Shown: in pieces, positions 22,513 to 33,753 of the stretch
Numbering within the stretch: position 1 is the stretch's first letter
How the letters are laid out: each line of letters opens with the position of its first letter
From: Patescibacteria group bacterium
GTDB lineage: Bacteria > Patescibacteriota > Minisyncoccia > Phycocordibacterales > SIBU01
Length of the DNA stretch: 64,000 bases
NCBI GenBank assembly: GCA_040390045.1
Contig: JAZJZC010000005.1
Span: 3,360-67,359, forward strand
Direction of reading: 5' to 3'
Program-made: the position numbers and the translations under genes
Notes under the pieces: generated by a model
Database searches by the model: none
What the model was told of the DNA's origin: nothing
The model's input: the letters and a program-made list of their open reading frames with translations, nothing else

Positions 22513-23895
22513 ATGAGAGTATCAAAAGAAGAAAAAGAAATAGTTGAGAAAATTAAATCTAGAAACTGGGAAAACCGAGTTCAGAGGCCCGGATTTTTTC
22601 AGTCGAAGCAAATTGTGTGTGAGGCACTTGGGCAGAAAACATGGCTTACAAAACATATCGCTGTTTCCGATAAAAATAGTTTTTGGGTTAGGAATTCCGC
22701 GATTTATGACCAAGATTTTACAGATAATTTAAACAAGGTGATTTTTCCGAATGCTTTTAAGGAAGATCCACATTGGCCAATAGAGGTATTTAAAAATATT
22801 GAACAATCTGCTAAGAAAAAAGATGAATTGGTTGGGAAATTTACTGAAACGGATTGGAGTAGGACGAGCACAGATGAAAAGATTTTTTGGTTGAATCGGT
22901 ACGTCGAAATTTTGCTGGAAATTCAAAAATACTATGCTTTTACAGTACCGTTGACAAATTATTGCGAGAAAATTTTAAAGGAGCGTAACCCGTCATTACT
23001 TGAGTATGCGGTACAGTACAAACCGCTTGATGTTGATCGTATGAATGAATCGCTCATCGAAATCAAAAGAGCAAAAAACGAGAATAGTCAAAATTTAGAT
23101 AATCTTTTCTTAAAACATCTAGCGCAGTTTGGGTGGATTAAATCGAATTATAATATTCTTGAGCCGTATACTAAGGAAGATGTTTTGAGTGAAATAAAAC
23201 ATGATATTTATGTCTTTCAACCGAGAGAAGCGCCGGAAAATCCTTACAAACATTTTGTAATTGGACTTCAGGTTGGTATCTACTTGCGTAATCGAGCCAA
23301 AGAATTATCCCAACAAATTTGGTTTGCATATGAAAACTTGGCTAAACAGTTGGCGACGGATGTATCATTGTCACGAGAGGATTTTTTGCAATTAAGCTAT
23401 AGAGAGGTCGAGGCCTCGCTGAACCAAGGCCGACTCACAATTAGCGGGGAAGAAATAGAAAGAAGGCATACAGGATTTATTCTCGGTGTTTTTGAAGGTA
23501 GAGATTTGTTAATAGCAGGAAAACTTGTTGATGAGTTGTTTGATTTTTTTAATCCTAAAAATTTTACGAATGTAAAGGAAATTTCTGGTACCGTTGCTTG
23601 CAAGGGTGTTGTGAGAGGAAAAGTGAAAGTGGTTATGACCATGGCTACAATCAATAAGCTGGAAGAAGGCGATATTTTGGTTACAAGCATGACTACGCCT
23701 GATTTTGTGGTTGCGATGAAAAGAGCGGCTGGGATTGTAACCGATGAGGGTGGACTCTCTTGTCATGCCGCGATAGTTTCGCGGGAACTTAGAAAGCCCT
23801 GTATAATTGGGACAAAGATTGCTACTAGGGTTTTAAAAGATGGGAATCTTGTTGAAGTTGATGCAGTAGTTGGGATTGTTAGATTAATTAAATGA
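22513..23895 (+). CDS. PEP-utilizing-enzyme mobile domain protein, paralog 2
   Basis: C-terminus CKGVVRGKVKVV...GDILVTSMTTPDF...DEGGLSCHAAIVSRELRKPCIIGT. Confidence 0.75.
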   Translation: MRVSKEEKEIVEKIKSRNWENRVQRPGFFQSKQIVCEALGQKTWLTKHIAVSDKNSFWVRNSAIYDQDFTDNLNKVIFPNAFKEDPHWPIEVFKNIEQSAKKKDELVGKFTETDWSRTSTDEKIFWLNRYVEILLEIQKYYAFTVPLTNYCEKILKERNPSLLEYAVQYKPLDVDRMNESLIEIKRAKNENSQNLDNLFLKHLAQFGWIKSNYNILEPYTKEDVLSEIKHDIYVFQPREAPENPYKHFVIGLQVGIYLRNRAKELSQQIWFAYENLAKQLATDVSLSREDFLQLSYREVEASLNQGRLTISGEEIERRHTGFILGVFEGRDLLIAGKLVDELFDFFNPKNFTNVKEISGTVACKGVVRGKVKVVMTMATINKLEEGDILVTSMTTPDFVVAMKRAAGIVTDEGGLSCHAAIVSRELRKPCIIGTKIATRVLKDGNLVEVDAVVGIVRLIK

Positions 23896-23896
23896 T

Positions 23897-24955
23897 ATGG
23901 ATATAGAAAAATTTAAACATGCAGACTGGACGAAAATTTGGGCGGGATCATGGAGTTTTTTGACATGTTTTCATTTTGGCAATGATTACACAAAAGAAAT
24001 TCACTTCGGAAGTCATCCCGTTTTCAGTCAGAGTATTATTTTTGTAAAAGAAGGCAAAAGTAATGGGTGGGCAACTCAAACAGACAGGGACCGTTTAGGT
24101 AATTTTCTTGCAACGGAGGTTAAAAATAATCCCGATAAAGCGTTAGAAGTTTGTTCTGAATTAAAGAAAGAAGTTGATTCGATTATAAATTTTTTGGATA
24201 CAAACGTTGCAGCTCAACCAAGTTTGGAAATTTACAATGATTTTTGGAACCATGTACTTCTGTACTACACACCGCATATTAATGTTAAATATGTTGTTGA
24301 TTATTTGGAACCAGAACTTTTGCAGAAGTTGTTACCACATCTTGAAGAAGCTCGTTTGTATGCCGAACCAGTTTTCAAGAGAACCGAAGATTTTATGATC
24401 TCAACAGCGCAAGCTATTGGTCAAAAAATTAATCTACCATATGAGCTTGTGCTTTGCACGACGAAGTCTGAGATGGACGAATATTTTAAAGGCGGCATTT
24501 TTCCGAAAAGGAACGTTCTTGAAGAGCGAAATAAGGGAGCGGTAATTTTATTTGATGAAACAGACTCGATGGTCATTACTGGTGCTGATGTACAGAAGGT
24601 TGAGGACATTGTTACTAAACAAACTGCAACCAATGTGATTAAGGGAATGGTTGCCTATAAAGGTAAGGTGACTGGCCGCGCTGTGATTATTCTCGATCCA
24701 ACAAAAGCCAATCATTTTGTTGAGGGAGATATTTTAGTGACAGGAATGACGCGACCCGAATATTTATCAATTATGGAAAAGGCAGCAGCCATTGTTACTG
24801 ACGCAGGAGGTATTCTTTCGCATGCCGCCATTTCTGCTCGAGAATTGAAAAAACCTTGTGTCATTGGAACACAGGTTGCGACAAAAGTTTTGAAGGACGG
24901 GGACTTGGTGGAAGTGGATGCTGATAGTGGAATAATTCGGTTATTAAAAGCCTAG
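23897..24955 (+). CDS. PEP-utilizing-enzyme mobile domain protein, paralog 3
   Basis: C-terminus DAGGILSHAAISARELKKPCVIGT. The N-terminus is homologous to paralog 4 (KHADWTKIW vs KHTDWVKVW, and ARLYAEPVF vs ARLYCEPAY). Confidence 0.75.
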   Translation: MDIEKFKHADWTKIWAGSWSFLTCFHFGNDYTKEIHFGSHPVFSQSIIFVKEGKSNGWATQTDRDRLGNFLATEVKNNPDKALEVCSELKKEVDSIINFLDTNVAAQPSLEIYNDFWNHVLLYYTPHINVKYVVDYLEPELLQKLLPHLEEARLYAEPVFKRTEDFMISTAQAIGQKINLPYELVLCTTKSEMDEYFKGGIFPKRNVLEERNKGAVILFDETDSMVITGADVQKVEDIVTKQTATNVIKGMVAYKGKVTGRAVIILDPTKANHFVEGDILVTGMTRPEYLSIMEKAAAIVTDAGGILSHAAISARELKKPCVIGTQVATKVLKDGDLVEVDADSGIIRLLKA

Positions 24956-24971
24956 TTGTTATTTTAGTTTT

Positions 24972-25859
24972 ATGAATATTAACGAAATGCCACCTAAGCA
25001 AGAGAGTCAGGAAATTATTTCCAAGATACAATTACATTTTTTCAGACACGGTGAACAGTTTAAGGATCCAGCAAAATCTGACCCTGAATACGAACTTTCT
25101 GCGGCTGGACGAGAGCAGGGAATGAATAAAGCGAAGTCAATTGAGGAAAGACCGAACCTCCGGCAGACCATGGCTTTTGGGAGCCCGAGAGCACGGTCAC
25201 AACAGACTGCCTCTTTTGCGATGGCTGGCCAGGCGCTCGATAGTGTTGTTGGTGACGAATCGCTGAAAGAACTTAAGGCAAAACTGGATGGAGATATTTC
25301 CTACGGATCTAAGGTAATGAGTGATCCTCGTCTCGATTTTACTATGGATAAGGATACCCCATTTGGAGCAAAAGCATTTGAAGCTTTTTCAAAGAAAGAA
25401 TATATGAAGTTTTTAGTTAATTCAAGTGATGCATTGGCGAAGGAAGTAAAAGACTCGAAAGGGTCAACATACTCAAGACAAGCTGGAGATGTGGCTCAAG
25501 TAGTAAAGAAATATCTTTCAGTCTCTAGCCGATGGAAGGAACTTGTCCAAAGTGGTAAATATCAAGATCCCAAACTCGAGCGATTTTTAGGTTCTCATGG
25601 TGGTGTAACCGAGTCTTTTTTGTTTAAGGTGATTGAAAAAACTAAAGGAATAGAGGAGCGTGACAGACTTCTAGCTCTTATTCCAAACATTTTTGATTTT
25701 ACGGAAGGTTTTGATGTCGAACTTGTAACCACTGACAGAAATAGCGAACCAGCAGTTAGGATTATTTACAAGAAGGAATTGCCTGGCGGCAAAAAGTTTA
25801 AATTTAACGAAGTTGTTCCGATTGAAGTTATTGAGGAAATTGTAAAAGAAGGAAAATAA
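24972..25859 (+). CDS. histidine phosphatase superfamily (phosphoglycerate-mutase-like) protein
   Basis: N-terminal FFRHGE (RHG motif) and the downstream LGSHGG second catalytic His motif. Confidence 0.55.
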   Translation: MNINEMPPKQESQEIISKIQLHFFRHGEQFKDPAKSDPEYELSAAGREQGMNKAKSIEERPNLRQTMAFGSPRARSQQTASFAMAGQALDSVVGDESLKELKAKLDGDISYGSKVMSDPRLDFTMDKDTPFGAKAFEAFSKKEYMKFLVNSSDALAKEVKDSKGSTYSRQAGDVAQVVKKYLSVSSRWKELVQSGKYQDPKLERFLGSHGGVTESFLFKVIEKTKGIEERDRLLALIPNIFDFTEGFDVELVTTDRNSEPAVRIIYKKELPGGKKFKFNEVVPIEVIEEIVKEGK

Positions 25860-25865
25860 AATTTT

Positions 25866-26942
25866 GTGGAACTTTCTGATTTCAAAAAACACACTGATTG
25901 GGTAAAAGTTTGGTCTTCTAGAGGAAGTCTGGCTTTCGATTCTCATTTTGGAGATCAGTGTACAAAGCAAAGTGATATTTCAAGTAAGCCATTTTTTGCT
26001 AAGACGGTGACGTTTTACAAAAATGGCATTTCTCATGGGTGGGTACGTGGTGAAGATAAAGATGATTTAGGTGACAGACTAAGCTCTTTGGCGAGGGAAG
26101 ATAGTACGTTTGTAGAAAAAATATCAAATGGTTTGATTTCTCATACAGACAGGGTAGCTTCTTTTATAGACTCTCAAAGTGTAAAAAATTTTGGACTTGT
26201 CGAATTTAATGAATTTTGGAAGGTAGTCCAAGATTATTTTTTATACCATGTGAGTGTTAAGTATATTGTTGATCGTCTTTCGATTGAAGATCTAGATAAA
26301 TTTTTACCAACACTTGAAAAGGCAAGGTTGTATTGCGAACCCGCATATAGAAATATCGAAAATTATATAGAACTTCTCGCTGAGAGAGTGGTCACGGAAA
26401 CTTCATACACCAAAGAAATGATTTTGGCCCTAACCAAGGAAGAATTCAGATCGTATTTTCAAGGTAATTTATTGCCGGATAAAGCCCAGCTAAAAAATCG
26501 GCATGAAAGTTCTGTACTTATTTTCGATTCCAAAGAGAGTCAGGTTTTTACTGGTATGGCTGTAGATGAAATTGAAAAAATCGTTTCATCTTTTTTGGCA
26601 CCCGATCTTATAAAAGGTCAAGTTGCTTTTGTGGGGAAGGTTATTGGTAAAGTAAAAGTGATCTCTAATCCATTGAAGGACGGGGGAAAGTTTGACGATG
26701 GAGATATCTTAGTAACCGGGATGACTCGACCAGAGTTTTTACCGCTCATGAAAAAAGCTGCAGCGTTTGTAACTGATGCGGGTGGAATCCTTTCTCATGT
26801 TGCTATTACGGCGCGTGAGTTGAAAAAGCCCTGTGTTATTAGTACCCAAGTTGCTAGCAAGGTTTTAAAGGATGGGGATTTAGTAGAGGTAGATGCCAAT
26901 TTAGGGATTGTAAAGATTTTAAAGAGAAACGGAGACAAATAA
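25866..26942 (+). CDS. PEP-utilizing-enzyme mobile domain protein, paralog 4 (GTG start)
   Basis: C-terminus DAGGILSHVAITARELKKPCVIST. Confidence 0.75.
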   Translation: MELSDFKKHTDWVKVWSSRGSLAFDSHFGDQCTKQSDISSKPFFAKTVTFYKNGISHGWVRGEDKDDLGDRLSSLAREDSTFVEKISNGLISHTDRVASFIDSQSVKNFGLVEFNEFWKVVQDYFLYHVSVKYIVDRLSIEDLDKFLPTLEKARLYCEPAYRNIENYIELLAERVVTETSYTKEMILALTKEEFRSYFQGNLLPDKAQLKNRHESSVLIFDSKESQVFTGMAVDEIEKIVSSFLAPDLIKGQVAFVGKVIGKVKVISNPLKDGGKFDDGDILVTGMTRPEFLPLMKKAAAFVTDAGGILSHVAITARELKKPCVISTQVASKVLKDGDLVEVDANLGIVKILKRNGDK

Positions 26943-29257: not shown

Positions 29258-31627
29258 TTGAAAGTAGCACTTTTATGTGGTGGCCCGTCGTTAGAAAGGG
29301 GAATTTCCCTTAATTCGGCGCGCTCAGTGCTCGATCACTTGGAGTCCGAGGATGTGGAAATTGTCCCAATCTATTTTGATACTCGAAAGCGAGCCTATCG
29401 AGTTTCGCGATCCCAGTTGTACAGTAATACACCATCGGATTTTGATTTCAAATTGAGCGCGATGGCGGCCGAACTTTCACCCCAAGCGCTCATTAAATTA
29501 CTTAAGTCAGTTGATATCGCTTTTCCCGCCATGCATGGGCCATTTGGTGAAGATGGCGGTATTCAAAGTTTGCTTGAGAAAAATTCTATTCCGTTCGTTG
29601 GTTCTGATTCGAAATCTTGTAAAACCGCTTTTGATAAATTTTCAGCGAATGAATTTGTTCGCGGCCGTGGTTTTTTTACTTTTCCATCGCAGCTACTTAA
29701 AATCTACAACCAAGATCACCAGGCCGTTATTGAAAGTTTTTTTAAGGAGCACAAACTTTCCAAAGCTATTGTTAAACCGGCAACCGGAGGCTCAAGCATC
29801 GGCGTCTTCTGTGTCTCCAGTCCCAAGGAGGCGCTCGATCGTGTTCGATTTCTATTTTCCAAACGCATGGACACCCGGGTAGTGCTTGAACCGGTAGCCA
29901 CAGGTACGGAATTTACCACGATTGTTTTACAAAATAAGCACGGGCTTCCAGTAGCGCTTCCTCCAACTGAAATTGAAACTGATTATTCGGAAAACCAAAT
30001 TTTTGATTTTAGACGAAAGTATTTGCCGACACGGCAAGTGATTTGGCATTGTCCGCCGAGATTTCCCGAGGAAGTCATTGAGAAGATTCAAGCTCAGGCG
30101 GAGCAGATTTTTTCTCTTTTCAAAATGAGGGATTTTGCGCGATTTGATGGATGGGTATTGCCTGACGGCAATATCTGGTTTTGCGATTTCAACAGTATCA
30201 GTGGTATGGAGCAGAATAGTTTCTTGTTTCAACAAGCTTCGCGTGTCGGCCTCACTCATGCCCAAGTGCTGAGGTTTATTTTACAAAACGCCTGTAATCG
30301 TCACGAACTTTCACTGTCTGAAAAACCTCCCGTTGTATCTGGAAATTTTCCGAGAAAACCGGTTAATGTTATTTTTGGTGGCGACAGTTCGGAGCGACAG
30401 GTTTCCCTTATGAGTGGAACGAATGCTTGGTTGAAACTACGAAAATCTGAGCGCTATGACCCACAGGCTTTTCTGCTTGATATGAAGGGGGATGTCTGGC
30501 ACGTGCCATATCAATTGGCGCTTAATCATACCGTTGAGGAAATTGCACAAAATTGTGAAAATTATGCTGTCGCTCGAGAGCGATTGGCCAGTTTCGAAAA
30601 AAGGACACGCATCAAACTTGGCTTGGAGTACGACGCTGACCCACATGATTTTTTTGCGCCAAAGAAAATGAGTCTTGGAGAATTTATTAAACTTTCTCCG
30701 TTTGTGTTTATTGCGCTTCACGGAGGAAAAGGCGAAGACGGCTCCTTTCAAGCTCTGTTAGCCAACGAAAGCGTTTTGTTTAACGGTCCCGACGCCAAAG
30801 TTTCCAAGTTGTGCATCGACAAAAGAGCCACGTCTTTGTTTATCAAGGATTTAAATATCGACGGCATTATTCCTATTGCAGGAGAGGTGGCGGTACTCAG
30901 TGAACTTTTGAAATTAAAATCTAAAGAGTTGAATGATTTCTGGAAAAAAATTACAGAGAAAATTGGCACAGGAGCTATTATTGTAAAGCCCTCTGACGAT
31001 GGCTGTTCGACAGGTGTCGCGAGACTCGGTGGTTTTGAGGATTTTGAAAAATATATTGATTTTTTTCGACAAGAGGCGAAATTTATTCCGAAGGGTTATA
31101 TAAAAAACAAAGATGTGGTTGAATTGCCAACCAAAGCGCCACACGAGTTGCTGTTTGAAAAATTTATTGAGACTGATAAATTAAAAGTGGTTAATAATCA
31201 AATTAAACATGCTCGTAAAACCGGTTGGGTTGAAATAACGGTGGGGGTAGTGGCTATTGAGGATAAAATTTCAGTTCTTAATCCAAGTATTACCATTGTT
31301 GAAAGTGGAGTTTTGACGGTTGAAGAAAAATTTCAGGGAGGTACGGGTATTAATATCACTCCACCGCCTATAAGCATTTTGAAACCGTCGTCTCTCAAGC
31401 GGGTCAAAGATTTAATTAAAAAAGTCGCCTCAGGTGTCGGTATCAAAGGTTACTCACGAGTCGATGCGTTTATGAATGTAAACAATGGCGATGTGATGAT
31501 TATTGAAGTTAACACGCTTCCAGCGCTCACGCCGTCGACGGTGTTGTATCAGCAAGCGCTCGCAGAAAATCCTCCGATTTTCCCAACAAAACTTTTGGAG
31601 ATGCTTATTGAGAACAAGGGGTACTAA
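29258..31627 (+). CDS. ddl: tandem-fused double D-alanine-D-alanine-ligase-like protein (two complete Ddl/ATP-grasp modules, 789 aa; TTG start)
   Basis: Module 1 has KVALLCGGPSLERGISLNSA, AMHGPFGEDGGIQ, IVKPATGGSSIG and FCDFNSISGM. Module 2 has VNVIFGGDSSERQVSLMSG, IALHGGKGEDGSFQ, IIVKPSDDGCSTG and IIEVNTLPALT. Confidence 0.75.
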   Translation: MKVALLCGGPSLERGISLNSARSVLDHLESEDVEIVPIYFDTRKRAYRVSRSQLYSNTPSDFDFKLSAMAAELSPQALIKLLKSVDIAFPAMHGPFGEDGGIQSLLEKNSIPFVGSDSKSCKTAFDKFSANEFVRGRGFFTFPSQLLKIYNQDHQAVIESFFKEHKLSKAIVKPATGGSSIGVFCVSSPKEALDRVRFLFSKRMDTRVVLEPVATGTEFTTIVLQNKHGLPVALPPTEIETDYSENQIFDFRRKYLPTRQVIWHCPPRFPEEVIEKIQAQAEQIFSLFKMRDFARFDGWVLPDGNIWFCDFNSISGMEQNSFLFQQASRVGLTHAQVLRFILQNACNRHELSLSEKPPVVSGNFPRKPVNVIFGGDSSERQVSLMSGTNAWLKLRKSERYDPQAFLLDMKGDVWHVPYQLALNHTVEEIAQNCENYAVARERLASFEKRTRIKLGLEYDADPHDFFAPKKMSLGEFIKLSPFVFIALHGGKGEDGSFQALLANESVLFNGPDAKVSKLCIDKRATSLFIKDLNIDGIIPIAGEVAVLSELLKLKSKELNDFWKKITEKIGTGAIIVKPSDDGCSTGVARLGGFEDFEKYIDFFRQEAKFIPKGYIKNKDVVELPTKAPHELLFEKFIETDKLKVVNNQIKHARKTGWVEITVGVVAIEDKISVLNPSITIVESGVLTVEEKFQGGTGINITPPPISILKPSSLKRVKDLIKKVASGVGIKGYSRVDAFMNVNNGDVMIIEVNTLPALTPSTVLYQQALAENPPIFPTKLLEMLIENKGY

Positions 31628-32843: not shown

Positions 32844-33149
32844 ATGAGCTTTTGTGATGAAATTCAAAAACTAGGAAAAGGCATCGGTACTGCGTCGAGG
32901 TATCAAATTATTGAGAGTTTGCTCTCAGGCCCTTTAACTGTGGGAGAAATTGTTAAAAAAGTAAAACTTTCCCAACCCGCTGTTTCCCAGCATTTAAAAA
33001 CCCTCAAGGCTTGTCAGCTTGTTTCCGATCAGAAAAGAGGAAAAGAGGTTTTTTACTCAATTAATGTGAAGCACATGGCGGATCTTCTGAAACATTTTAT
33101 GACCACTATTAACGAATGTCCGAAAGAAAAACTTAAAACTACAAAATAA
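32844..33149 (+). CDS. ArsR/SmtB-family transcriptional regulator
   Basis: The LSQPAVSQHLKTLKACQLV helix-turn-helix. Confidence 0.75.
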   Translation: MSFCDEIQKLGKGIGTASRYQIIESLLSGPLTVGEIVKKVKLSQPAVSQHLKTLKACQLVSDQKRGKEVFYSINVKHMADLLKHFMTTINECPKEKLKTTK

Positions 33150-33150
33150 C

Positions 33151-33753
33151 ATGTATAACACCCTTGCCTCTAAAAAATCTGTTGAGAAAACTATCGCTGG
33201 CTTAAAATCAACCGGCATCGAAGCTATGTTTGTCGAAAGCGGAGTTGAGGCAAAAAAGAAGGTTTTGGAAATAATTCCGGCGGGGGCTGAAGTGATGAAC
33301 ATGACCTCGATAACTCTTGAAACGATTGGAGTTGTAGATGAAATCAACCAATCCGGAAAATTTAATTCCGTGCGAAATAAATTGATGGACAAAGACGTTG
33401 CTCCCCGTGAAAAAAAGCGTCTCGGTGCGGCGCCCGAATGGACTGTCGGTAGTGTTCACGCGGTGACAGAAAACGGTGAAGTGATGATCGCTTCAAATAC
33501 CGGAAGTCAGTTGCCTGCCTATGCCTATGGAGCGGATCATGTCATCTGGGTTGTGGGTACGCAAAAAATTGTTAAAGATTTGGATGAAGGACACAAGCGC
33601 ATTTATGAGCACGTCTTACCACTTGAGAGTGAGAGAGCCCACAAAGCCTACGGTGTTCCCGGCAGTTTTGTTAGCAAAATTTTGGTTGTAAACAAAGAGG
33701 TTCAGCCAGAAAGGATTACGTTGATTTTTGTTGGGGAGAATTTGGGGTTCTAA
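33151..33753 (+). CDS. LUD-domain (LutC/YkgG-like, DUF162) protein
   Basis: 200 aa; LUD-like pattern with conserved G/T-rich segments. Translationally coupled to the ArsR gene. Confidence 0.6.
   Translation: MYNTLASKKSVEKTIAGLKSTGIEAMFVESGVEAKKKVLEIIPAGAEVMNMTSITLETIGVVDEINQSGKFNSVRNKLMDKDVAPREKKRLGAAPEWTVGSVHAVTENGEVMIASNTGSQLPAYAYGADHVIWVVGTQKIVKDLDEGHKRIYEHVLPLESERAHKAYGVPGSFVSKILVVNKEVQPERITLIFVGENLGF

Follow-up and report, generated by a model that had tools for sequence, protein, structure and literature searches.

In the 64,000-nucleotide (64-kb) stretch of Patescibacteria DNA analysed here (hereafter the window), the gene at 29258-31627 encodes, as judged from its sequence, two complete ATP-grasp modules of the Ddl (D-alanine--D-alanine ligase) type in one chain, joined by a linker of ~17 residues. 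The two-module design is already known from plants, and the gene is a bacterial member, from the candidate phyla radiation (CPR), of the tandem plant-type DDL. The protein is probably the organism's D-alanyl-D-alanine (D-Ala-D-Ala) ligase for peptidoglycan precursors, with both ATP-grasp sites competent and the two modules arranged as a covalent pseudo-dimer. Four observations carry this reading: the architecture, the conservation of the catalytic residues, the kinship with plant DDL and, in relatives, the coupling to alr, murF, ftsQ and PASTA-domain genes. From these we infer that the product is D-Ala-D-Ala, that both modules are active and that they are arranged as a pseudo-dimer. The gene and its parts are as follows.

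29258-31627, forward strand: tandem Ddl open reading frame (ORF), 789 aa plus stop codon, TTG start at 29258-29260, from the ORF list, homologue coverage and the NCBI record.
29258-30307, forward strand: N module, residues 1-350, a Tyr-type Ddl unit matching PF01820 and PF07478, with all canonical DdlB catalytic residues.
30308-30358, forward strand: inter-module linker, residues ~351-367, poorly conserved and with no regular secondary structure.
30359-31624, forward strand: C module, residues 368-789, a Phe-type Ddl unit with insertions, with Ddl matches in Pfam and PDB.

Both Ddl Pfam domains match the whole protein twice. The N half (residues 1-360) scores 89.9 bits for PF01820 and 91.1 bits for PF07478 and the C half (residues 361-789) 65.4 and 56.7 bits respectively, all above the gathering scores of 34.6 and 24, which bears out the claim of an earlier note on this DNA that two complete Ddl-like ATP-grasp modules are fused here. 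The sequence matches of both halves are to solved Ddl and VanA structures. For the Ddl model TIGR01205 (cut-off 245.65 bits) the whole protein scores 311.8 bits, a value reached only by adding the two modules. The same note had ascribed the full Ddl motif set to both halves, and this holds for three of the four motifs, each of which occurs literally once per half: GG.S.ER.(I/V)SL.S at residues 8 and 374, HG..GEDG(G/S).Q at residues 93 and 488, and (I/V)VKP...G(S/C)S.G at residues 171 and 575. These three (GG.S.ER, HG..GEDG and VKP) gave 0 occurrences in 20,000 protein shuffles. The fourth is literal in the C half only (EVNTLPALT, residue 750), its N-half equivalent being DFNSISGME at residue 310. 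With 789 aa and two modules, the protein does not have the canonical single-module layout of ~300-370 aa. Mean column conservation is 0.80 for the N module, 0.71 for the C module and 0.43 for the linker. Given that the N and C halves share only 29% identity across 145 aligned residues, the pair stems from an old duplication or fusion and is no recent repeat.

The ORF is a single gene and not two adjacent ones joined or split by error, a point that the earlier note had left to a frameshift check: at least 120 full-length homologues and 382 clusters have the same single-ORF layout, and its presence in hundreds of independent assemblies excludes a frameshift or assembly artefact. The protein is recorded at NCBI as MES2088227.1, 789 aa, under the name 'hypothetical protein', and the homologues found in a word-indexed search span 100% of the 789-aa query from residue 1 onward. 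The TTG at 29258 is the earliest possible start past the upstream stop codon, and no other start keeps both the GG.S.ER motif and the conserved strand at the N-terminus. An alternative model (P0001, 29462-31627, 721 aa, starting at Met69) was rejected, as it loses the first β-strand and GG.S.ER and the homologues fit the 789-aa TTG model. Beyond setting the correct N-terminus, the TTG start has no special meaning and is not the distinguishing mark it had been taken for. The low GC (guanine plus cytosine) content that had been claimed alongside it was an error: the ORF has a GC of 0.427 against 0.433 for the window, within the range of the 2-kb bins (0.376-0.488), and the reading of the gene as a compositional island was dropped for this reason.

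Active-site residues were mapped onto Escherichia coli DdlB, a reference checked against PDB 2dln/1iov, using hmmalign for the N module (this method breaks at the C-module insertions) and motifs together with local PDB alignments for the C module. The mapping was confirmed by an independent joint L-INS-i alignment, in which 22 N and 25 C modules were set beside 11 canonical Ddls. The DdlB catalytic set (E15, K97, K144, E180, E187, K215, R255, D257, E270, N272, G276, S281) is complete in the N module, with E270 as D, and all of it is likewise found in the C module, with S281 as T and G276 as G or A; in the joint alignment the set is also kept in the plant and Cytophagales members. Across 120 members, the invariant residues of the N module are E13, S17, H93, K127, K173, S179, S180, E211, E218, K254, Y255, R295, D297, N312, G316 and S321, and those of the C module are E379, S383, H488, K522, K577, E634, E659, K691, R734, D736, E750 and N752. 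The second module thus retains its catalytic residues and is not the dead copy whose discovery the earlier note had named as grounds for giving up its reading. The fixed changes relative to DdlB are as follows: in the N module E270 to D310, which is conservative, and L282 to F322; in the C module S150 to C583, Y216 to F692 and S281 to T761 (each in 120/120), together with L282 to V762. The positions that set the modules apart, and the largest insertion, lie as follows.

30017-30022, forward strand: K254-Y255, the omega-loop Lys-Tyr pair of the N module (DdlB K215-Y216); Y in 120/120 members and in 22/22 modules of the joint alignment.
31328-31333, forward strand: K691-F692, the omega-loop Lys-Phe pair of the C module (DdlB K215-Y216); F in 120/120 members and in 25/25 modules of the joint alignment.
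31004-31006, forward strand: C583 in place of DdlB Ser150; C in 120/120 members and in 23/25 modules of the joint alignment.
30479-30661, forward strand: largely helical insertion of ~60 residues (~408-468) in the first subdomain of the C module, without counterpart in canonical Ddl.

The Glu15-Ser150-Tyr216 hydrogen-bond triad of DdlB is complete in the N module (E13, S179, Y255), and the corresponding residues of the C module are E379, C583 and F692. At the Y216 position the joint alignment has Tyr in the canonical Ddls (11/11) and the N modules (22/22) and Phe in the C modules (25/25), the plant and Cytophagales sequences included. The module signatures are kept in the Coffea proteins, in Marivirga and in all other representatives examined. 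Compared with canonical Ddl (E. coli DdlB, PDB 2dln, and DdlA), both modules have the ATP-grasp fold and all catalytic residues in common and the N module also keeps the triad, its Asp for Glu270 being a difference; canonical Ddl is a homodimer of a ~306-370-aa unit, whereas the tandem Ddl consists of two non-identical fused units with large insertions in the C module.

These residues suggest how the enzyme may work. Each module has its own complete ATP-grasp site, in which ATP-binding Lys and Glu residues are joined by Asp/Glu-Asn ligands of Mg2+, a catalytic Arg and an omega-loop Lys. At each site ATP would phosphorylate the carboxylate of one D-alanine (D-Ala), and a second D-amino (or hydroxy) acid would attack the acyl phosphate. 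Where the canonical enzyme is a homodimer, the fused units probably form a covalent pseudo-heterodimer. With its canonical Tyr-type substrate-gating triad, the N module probably makes D-Ala-D-Ala; the C module is a distinct, equally conserved Phe-type unit, for which a D-Ala-D-Ala product is the default assumption.

The C module could instead be a catalytically silent structural or regulatory partner that replaces the second subunit of the homodimer and leaves the N module alone active. Its greater divergence fits such a role: it has the lower Pfam and NCBIfam scores, it carries insertions of ~60 residues in the first subdomain and of ~25 and ~18 residues in the central domain, and it has lost the Ser and Tyr of the triad. 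Fused pseudo-enzyme partners are, moreover, common in other protein families. However, this is very unlikely for two reasons: first, all ATP-, Mg2+- and transition-state-binding residues of the C module are invariant at overall identities as low as 31%, which would be difficult to account for if the module were not catalytic. Second, free-standing C-type proteins exist, among them the 420-aa P0250 (L081:368-1630), a Phe-type module with its own ATG whose adjacent upstream gene is psd-like (phosphatidylserine decarboxylase) and not an N module. The ~60-residue insertion lengthens the distance between S383 and H488 to 105 residues, against 44 in DdlB, has helices at 426-434 and 436-454 predicted with high confidence, and holds the conserved motif LNHTVEEI, in which N423, H424, T425 and E427 are invariant.

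The fold was addressed with an AlphaFold2 model built from a 66-sequence alignment, which has a mean predicted local distance difference test score (pLDDT) of 87.8 and a predicted template modelling score (pTM) of 0.87. Confidence is low only at the two omega loops, at residues 241-260 (pLDDT 56-59), where the drop is as expected of a mobile loop, and at residues 683-696 (pLDDT below 50); the linker blocks (residues 351-370) reach 71-78. A Foldseek search of the PDB matched solely Ddl, VanA, VanG and LmDdl2 chains, with target-normalised template modelling scores of 0.77-0.89. Each of these matches covers one module, with at most 384 columns, and no solved chain spans both. The high pTM suggests that the modules are held in a fixed arrangement, plausibly like that of the canonical homodimer.

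The closest characterised relatives are the DDLs of plants. The Coffea eugenioides protein XP_027176337.1 (P0170, 956 aa) is 47% identical to the window protein, with query residues 2-784 aligned collinearly to its residues 82-948, and is one of several representatives that are 900-1100 aa long with N-terminal extensions. Plant DDL has been described as a fusion of two DDLs that is found throughout the plant lineage (PMC9954125). Plant and algal DDLs (Physcomitrium patens PpDDL, Arabidopsis AtDDL and that of Coffea) likewise carry two Ddl units per chain, arranged as in the window protein, whose signatures the Coffea DDL shares, namely the K-Y pair, S, D310 and F322 in the N module and the K-F pair, C583, T761 and V762 in the C module. 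The plant proteins differ in being nuclear-encoded, ~940-960 aa long and equipped with an N-terminal extension, which the window protein does not have. Knockout of DDL in moss abolishes the dimerisation of D-Ala for peptidoglycan and gives macrochloroplasts (PMC9954125; PMC9434261; PMC7432710; the macrochloroplasts also PMC12681378). DDL is called functionally characterised in Physcomitrella and Arabidopsis (PMC7432710); the genetic test of plant DDL function has been made in moss only.

The origin of the fusion can be approached from a neighbour-joining module tree, for which no bootstrap support was computed. The tree has three clades, formed by the C modules, the N modules and the canonical Ddls, with the N modules nearer to the canonical enzymes. 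Internal branching is alike in the N-module and C-module clades, Marivirga being basal in both and the plants standing together in both, and this matching order therefore indicates, within the limits of a neighbour-joining tree without bootstrap values, a single ancestral fusion followed by co-evolution of the two modules. Moss Ddl has been placed nearest to homologues from the Fibrobacteres-Chlorobi-Bacteroidetes group (PMC9434261), which fits the Cytophagales clade found here. Stand-alone modules were considered as ancestors of the fusion and rejected, since they nest inside the module clades of the tree and so appear to be fragments or products of later fission. Of the relatives of single-module length, most are fragments at contig ends; three proteins (P0255, P0258, P0271) look C-only and one (P0266) looks N-only.

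In bacteria the family is large. The word-indexed search gave at least 120 full-length homologues of 785-835 aa with 58-77% identity, from organisms named as many CPR lineages; most of these are called 'hypothetical', and 'D-alanine--D-alanine ligase' is the name on those from JGI (Joint Genome Institute). An exhaustive search of representatives gave, at E<1e-30, 382 clusters formed at the 50% identity level; the top 150 of the 382 are mostly full-length two-module proteins with 31-61% identity. A scan of species-representative genomes located 62 two-module loci, mostly in Patescibacteria. Further loci, at ~55-62% identity, lie in metagenome-assembled genomes (MAGs) labelled Gammaproteobacteria, Thiotrichales, Coxiellaceae, Rickettsiales and Bdellovibrionales (L003, L009, L011, L015, L018, L032, L034, L041, L082). 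One of these (L082) is a 2.0-Mb gammaproteobacterial contig on which the context of the tandem ddl (lolCD and a gene for an ankyrin-repeat protein) is truly proteobacterial. The presence of CPR-type tandem Ddls in proteobacterial MAGs suggests horizontal transfer among host-associated or small-genome bacteria.

Outside these groups the cultured Bacteroidota member Marivirga sericea has a tandem copy with 31% identity, and with the Marivirga protein as query, tandem proteins of ~895 aa were found throughout the cultured Cytophagales (Marivirga, Pontibacter, Adhaeribacter, Rufibacter, Rhodocytophaga), where RefSeq and UniProt name them 'D-alanine--D-alanine ligase (family protein)'. They share the module order and the catalytic and signature residues of the window protein and differ from it in being ~100 residues longer, in their ~31% identity to it and in already bearing the Ddl name in RefSeq. 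The novelty implied by the earlier note was therefore overstated, as the gene belongs to a large and ancient family that includes plant DDL (PMC9954125) and these named Cytophagales proteins. The 'hypothetical protein' label of the CPR clade probably arises because neither module alone reaches the TIGR01205 cut-off. Four proteins of 1100-1900 aa (P0212, P0230, P0226, P0194) have SAP or Rho_N-like domains before the tandem Ddl and several separate query matches, and look like eukaryotic (possibly algal) gene models.

Gene context in relatives links the family to the cell wall. The commonest neighbour is an alanine racemase gene (Pfam-confirmed), which lies directly downstream on the same strand with a gap of -13 to +32 nt at 13 of 58 related loci; in a Pfam census of the +1 and +2 genes, alanine racemase appears at 14 loci and Asp/Glu racemase at 3. 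Natural fusions exist as well, namely Ddl-Ddl-MurF-Alr (P0187, 1638 aa) and Ddl-Ddl-MurF (P0168, 1262 aa), whose Mur segments score 357 and 323 bits respectively against the curated murF cut-off of 288.6. On a 1.03-Mb contig of CPR size (L084) the tandem ddl lies between an upstream M15 peptidase gene and a downstream ftsQ, with mreB, mreC and the gene for penicillin-binding protein 2 (PBP2) upstream. In Cytophagales one or two PASTA-domain genes directly follow the tandem ddl (L085:10682-11470; L086:10748-12353), and in Marivirga tractuosa the tandem ddl and the PASTA gene overlap by 4 nt. The alr, ftsQ and PASTA neighbours and the murF fusions all point to the D-Ala branch of peptidoglycan precursor synthesis. 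Together with the moss genetics, the coupling to alr, murF and ftsQ lends indirect support to D-Ala-D-Ala synthesis as the activity. One further fusion (P0161, 987 aa) joins an N-terminal GNAT acetyltransferase to Ddl-Ddl.

Covalent fusions of peptidoglycan enzymes are known from the Mur chimeras (Chlamydia MurC-Ddl; MurE-MurF), which differ from the tandem Ddl in that they join different enzymes and not two Ddl paralogues. A survey of natural Mur chimeras contains no Ddl-Ddl, Ddl-Ddl-MurF or Ddl-Ddl-MurF-Alr (PMC10214165). The Ddl-Ddl-MurF and Ddl-Ddl-MurF-Alr relatives extend the chimera theme by uniting successive D-Ala-branch steps in a single polypeptide.

The same context bears on whether the two sites act in series, giving a tri- or tetrapeptide or another non-wall ATP-grasp product. 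Channelling of a product between two sites on the same polypeptide is conceivable in principle, and the window gene has no cell-wall neighbours. Action in series is, however, highly improbable: in both modules the pocket residues for D-Ala1 and D-Ala2 are those of dipeptide-forming Ddls, the conserved partners (alr, murF, ftsQ, PASTA) all belong to the peptidoglycan pathway, the plant orthologue works in peptidoglycan synthesis, and there is no evidence of a longer product. The tri- or tetrapeptide put forward in the earlier note accordingly found no support.

The consistent difference between the modules raises another possibility, namely that the Phe/Cys/Thr-type C module is a second ligase of other specificity (D-Ala-D-lactate, D-Ala-D-Ser or another D-Ala-D-X). 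The N module would then make D-Ala-D-Ala, with the C module making either the D-Ala-D-lactate depsipeptide or a dipeptide with another D-amino acid, so that one chain would feed two stem-peptide termini or a second, non-wall product. Several observations favour such a division of labour. Phe stands at the DdlB Tyr216 position in all C modules (120/120 and 25/25) and Tyr in all N modules and the 11 canonical Ddls, and in lactic acid bacteria Phe or Tyr at the equivalent, single active-site residue decides between depsipeptide and dipeptide activity (PMC5996685). The invariant Tyr/Phe difference lends some support to the two different products or tandem action considered in the earlier note. The C-module pocket has further fixed changes (S150 to C, S281 to T, L282 to V), and the two modules have stayed different all the way between CPR bacteria and plants, an argument for roles that are not redundant. 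The M15 peptidase gene directly upstream of the tandem ddl on L084 (L084:9226-9879, Peptidase_M15) has as its best NCBIfam matches the D-Ala-D-Ala dipeptidases DdpX and VanX, both below cut-off and in this one locus. The plant literature, finally, mentions D-Ala dimerised with other amino acids by unknown enzymes (PMC7432710).

Nevertheless, a second specificity, though a serious alternative, is the less likely reading for several reasons. First, the C half scores 65.8 bits against a curated cut-off of 550 for D_ala_D_lac and 62.3 bits against 520 for D_ala_D_ser; the N half is likewise below these cut-offs, with 104 and 122 bits respectively. Second, Phe-type Ddls such as LmDdl2 retain D-Ala-D-Ala synthesis. 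Third, related loci have no recurrent VanH-like dehydrogenase neighbour, and the idea of one was rejected, as the only two 2-Hacid_dh neighbours coincide with two ACT-domain matches and look SerA-like; the idea of a VanX-like neighbour was rejected as well, the M15 gene occurring in one locus only. Within the 64-kb window there is no van-type operon (a vanH-like dehydrogenase gene with a vanX-like dipeptidase gene). Fourth, moss is reported to make standard peptidoglycan precursors, with the same pentapeptide blocks as typical Gram-negative bacteria (PMC9434261). The C module thus shares its omega-loop Phe with LmDdl2 (PDB 1ehi) and the D-Ala-D-Lac ligases of lactic acid bacteria (PMC5996685) and differs from Phe-type D-Ala-D-Lac or VanA-type ligases in its score (65.8 against 550 bits) and in the want of a recurrent vanH/vanX context. 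Within the tandem proteins, Cys for Ser150 is a feature of the C module. If the C module did have a second specificity, the tandem Ddls of CPR bacteria, Cytophagales and plant plastids would of necessity yield two products. The hosts would then form an additional stem-peptide terminus or D-amino-acid conjugate that has so far escaped notice, and it would become clear why angiosperms keep DDL although they have no full Mur pathway.

The reading of the tandem protein as a D-Ala-D-Ala ligase with two competent sites has itself to be weighed against five points. The window holds no alr, mur or fts neighbour of the gene and no second ddl. Taken alone, the halves stay below the TIGR01205 cut-off of 245.65 bits, the N half at 196 bits and the C half at 121 bits. 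The C module is without two of the three triad residues (S150 to C, Y216 to F), and its chemistry may differ. The suggested packing as a covalent pseudo-dimer is read solely from the pTM value of the model. For plant DDL, finally, the activity of the separate halves is stated to be untested (PMC9954125).

The tandem Ddl appears to be the form that an essential, antibiotic-targeted wall enzyme takes in a large share of Patescibacteria, some host-associated Proteobacteria, Cytophagales and all plants. The searchable literature contained nothing on bacterial tandem Ddl members or on Tyr/Phe module differentiation, and Ddl is absent from two reviews by Sato. More specifically, three points were not found there: that the plant DDL fusion lies within a broad bacterial family with one shared ancestral fusion, that the modules differ systematically, as Tyr and Phe, at the dipeptide/depsipeptide switch residue, and that the CPR clade has been left 'hypothetical', apparently because each module misses the Ddl score. 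An unequal and universally conserved pair of Tyr-type and Phe-type sites is a notable feature of an essential enzyme. Consequences include better annotation of CPR cell-wall metabolism, and there is possible relevance to susceptibility to D-cycloserine or vancomycin and to the puzzle of why angiosperms have kept DDL.

The neighbours of the gene in the window are unrelated to it and comprise genes for a riboflavin kinase, an EamA transporter, an endonuclease/exonuclease/phosphatase protein, a CYTH protein, a serine hydrolase, an ArsR regulator, a LUD-domain protein and an M1 peptidase. An Rfam scan of the window gave no matches, and a scan for promoters and terminators gave no more than the shuffle expectation. 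At 32844-33753, ~1.5 kb downstream of the tandem ddl, the ArsR-family regulator is followed immediately by the LUD-domain protein, which is of the LutB/LutC type (lactate utilisation); this proximity is probably coincidental. Upstream, two same-strand ORFs of ~355 aa at 23897-24955 and 25866-26942 have similar N-termini (…DWTKIWAGSWSF… and …DWVKVWSSRGSL… respectively) and look like paralogues, and both sit in an unannotated gene block at 22513-26942.

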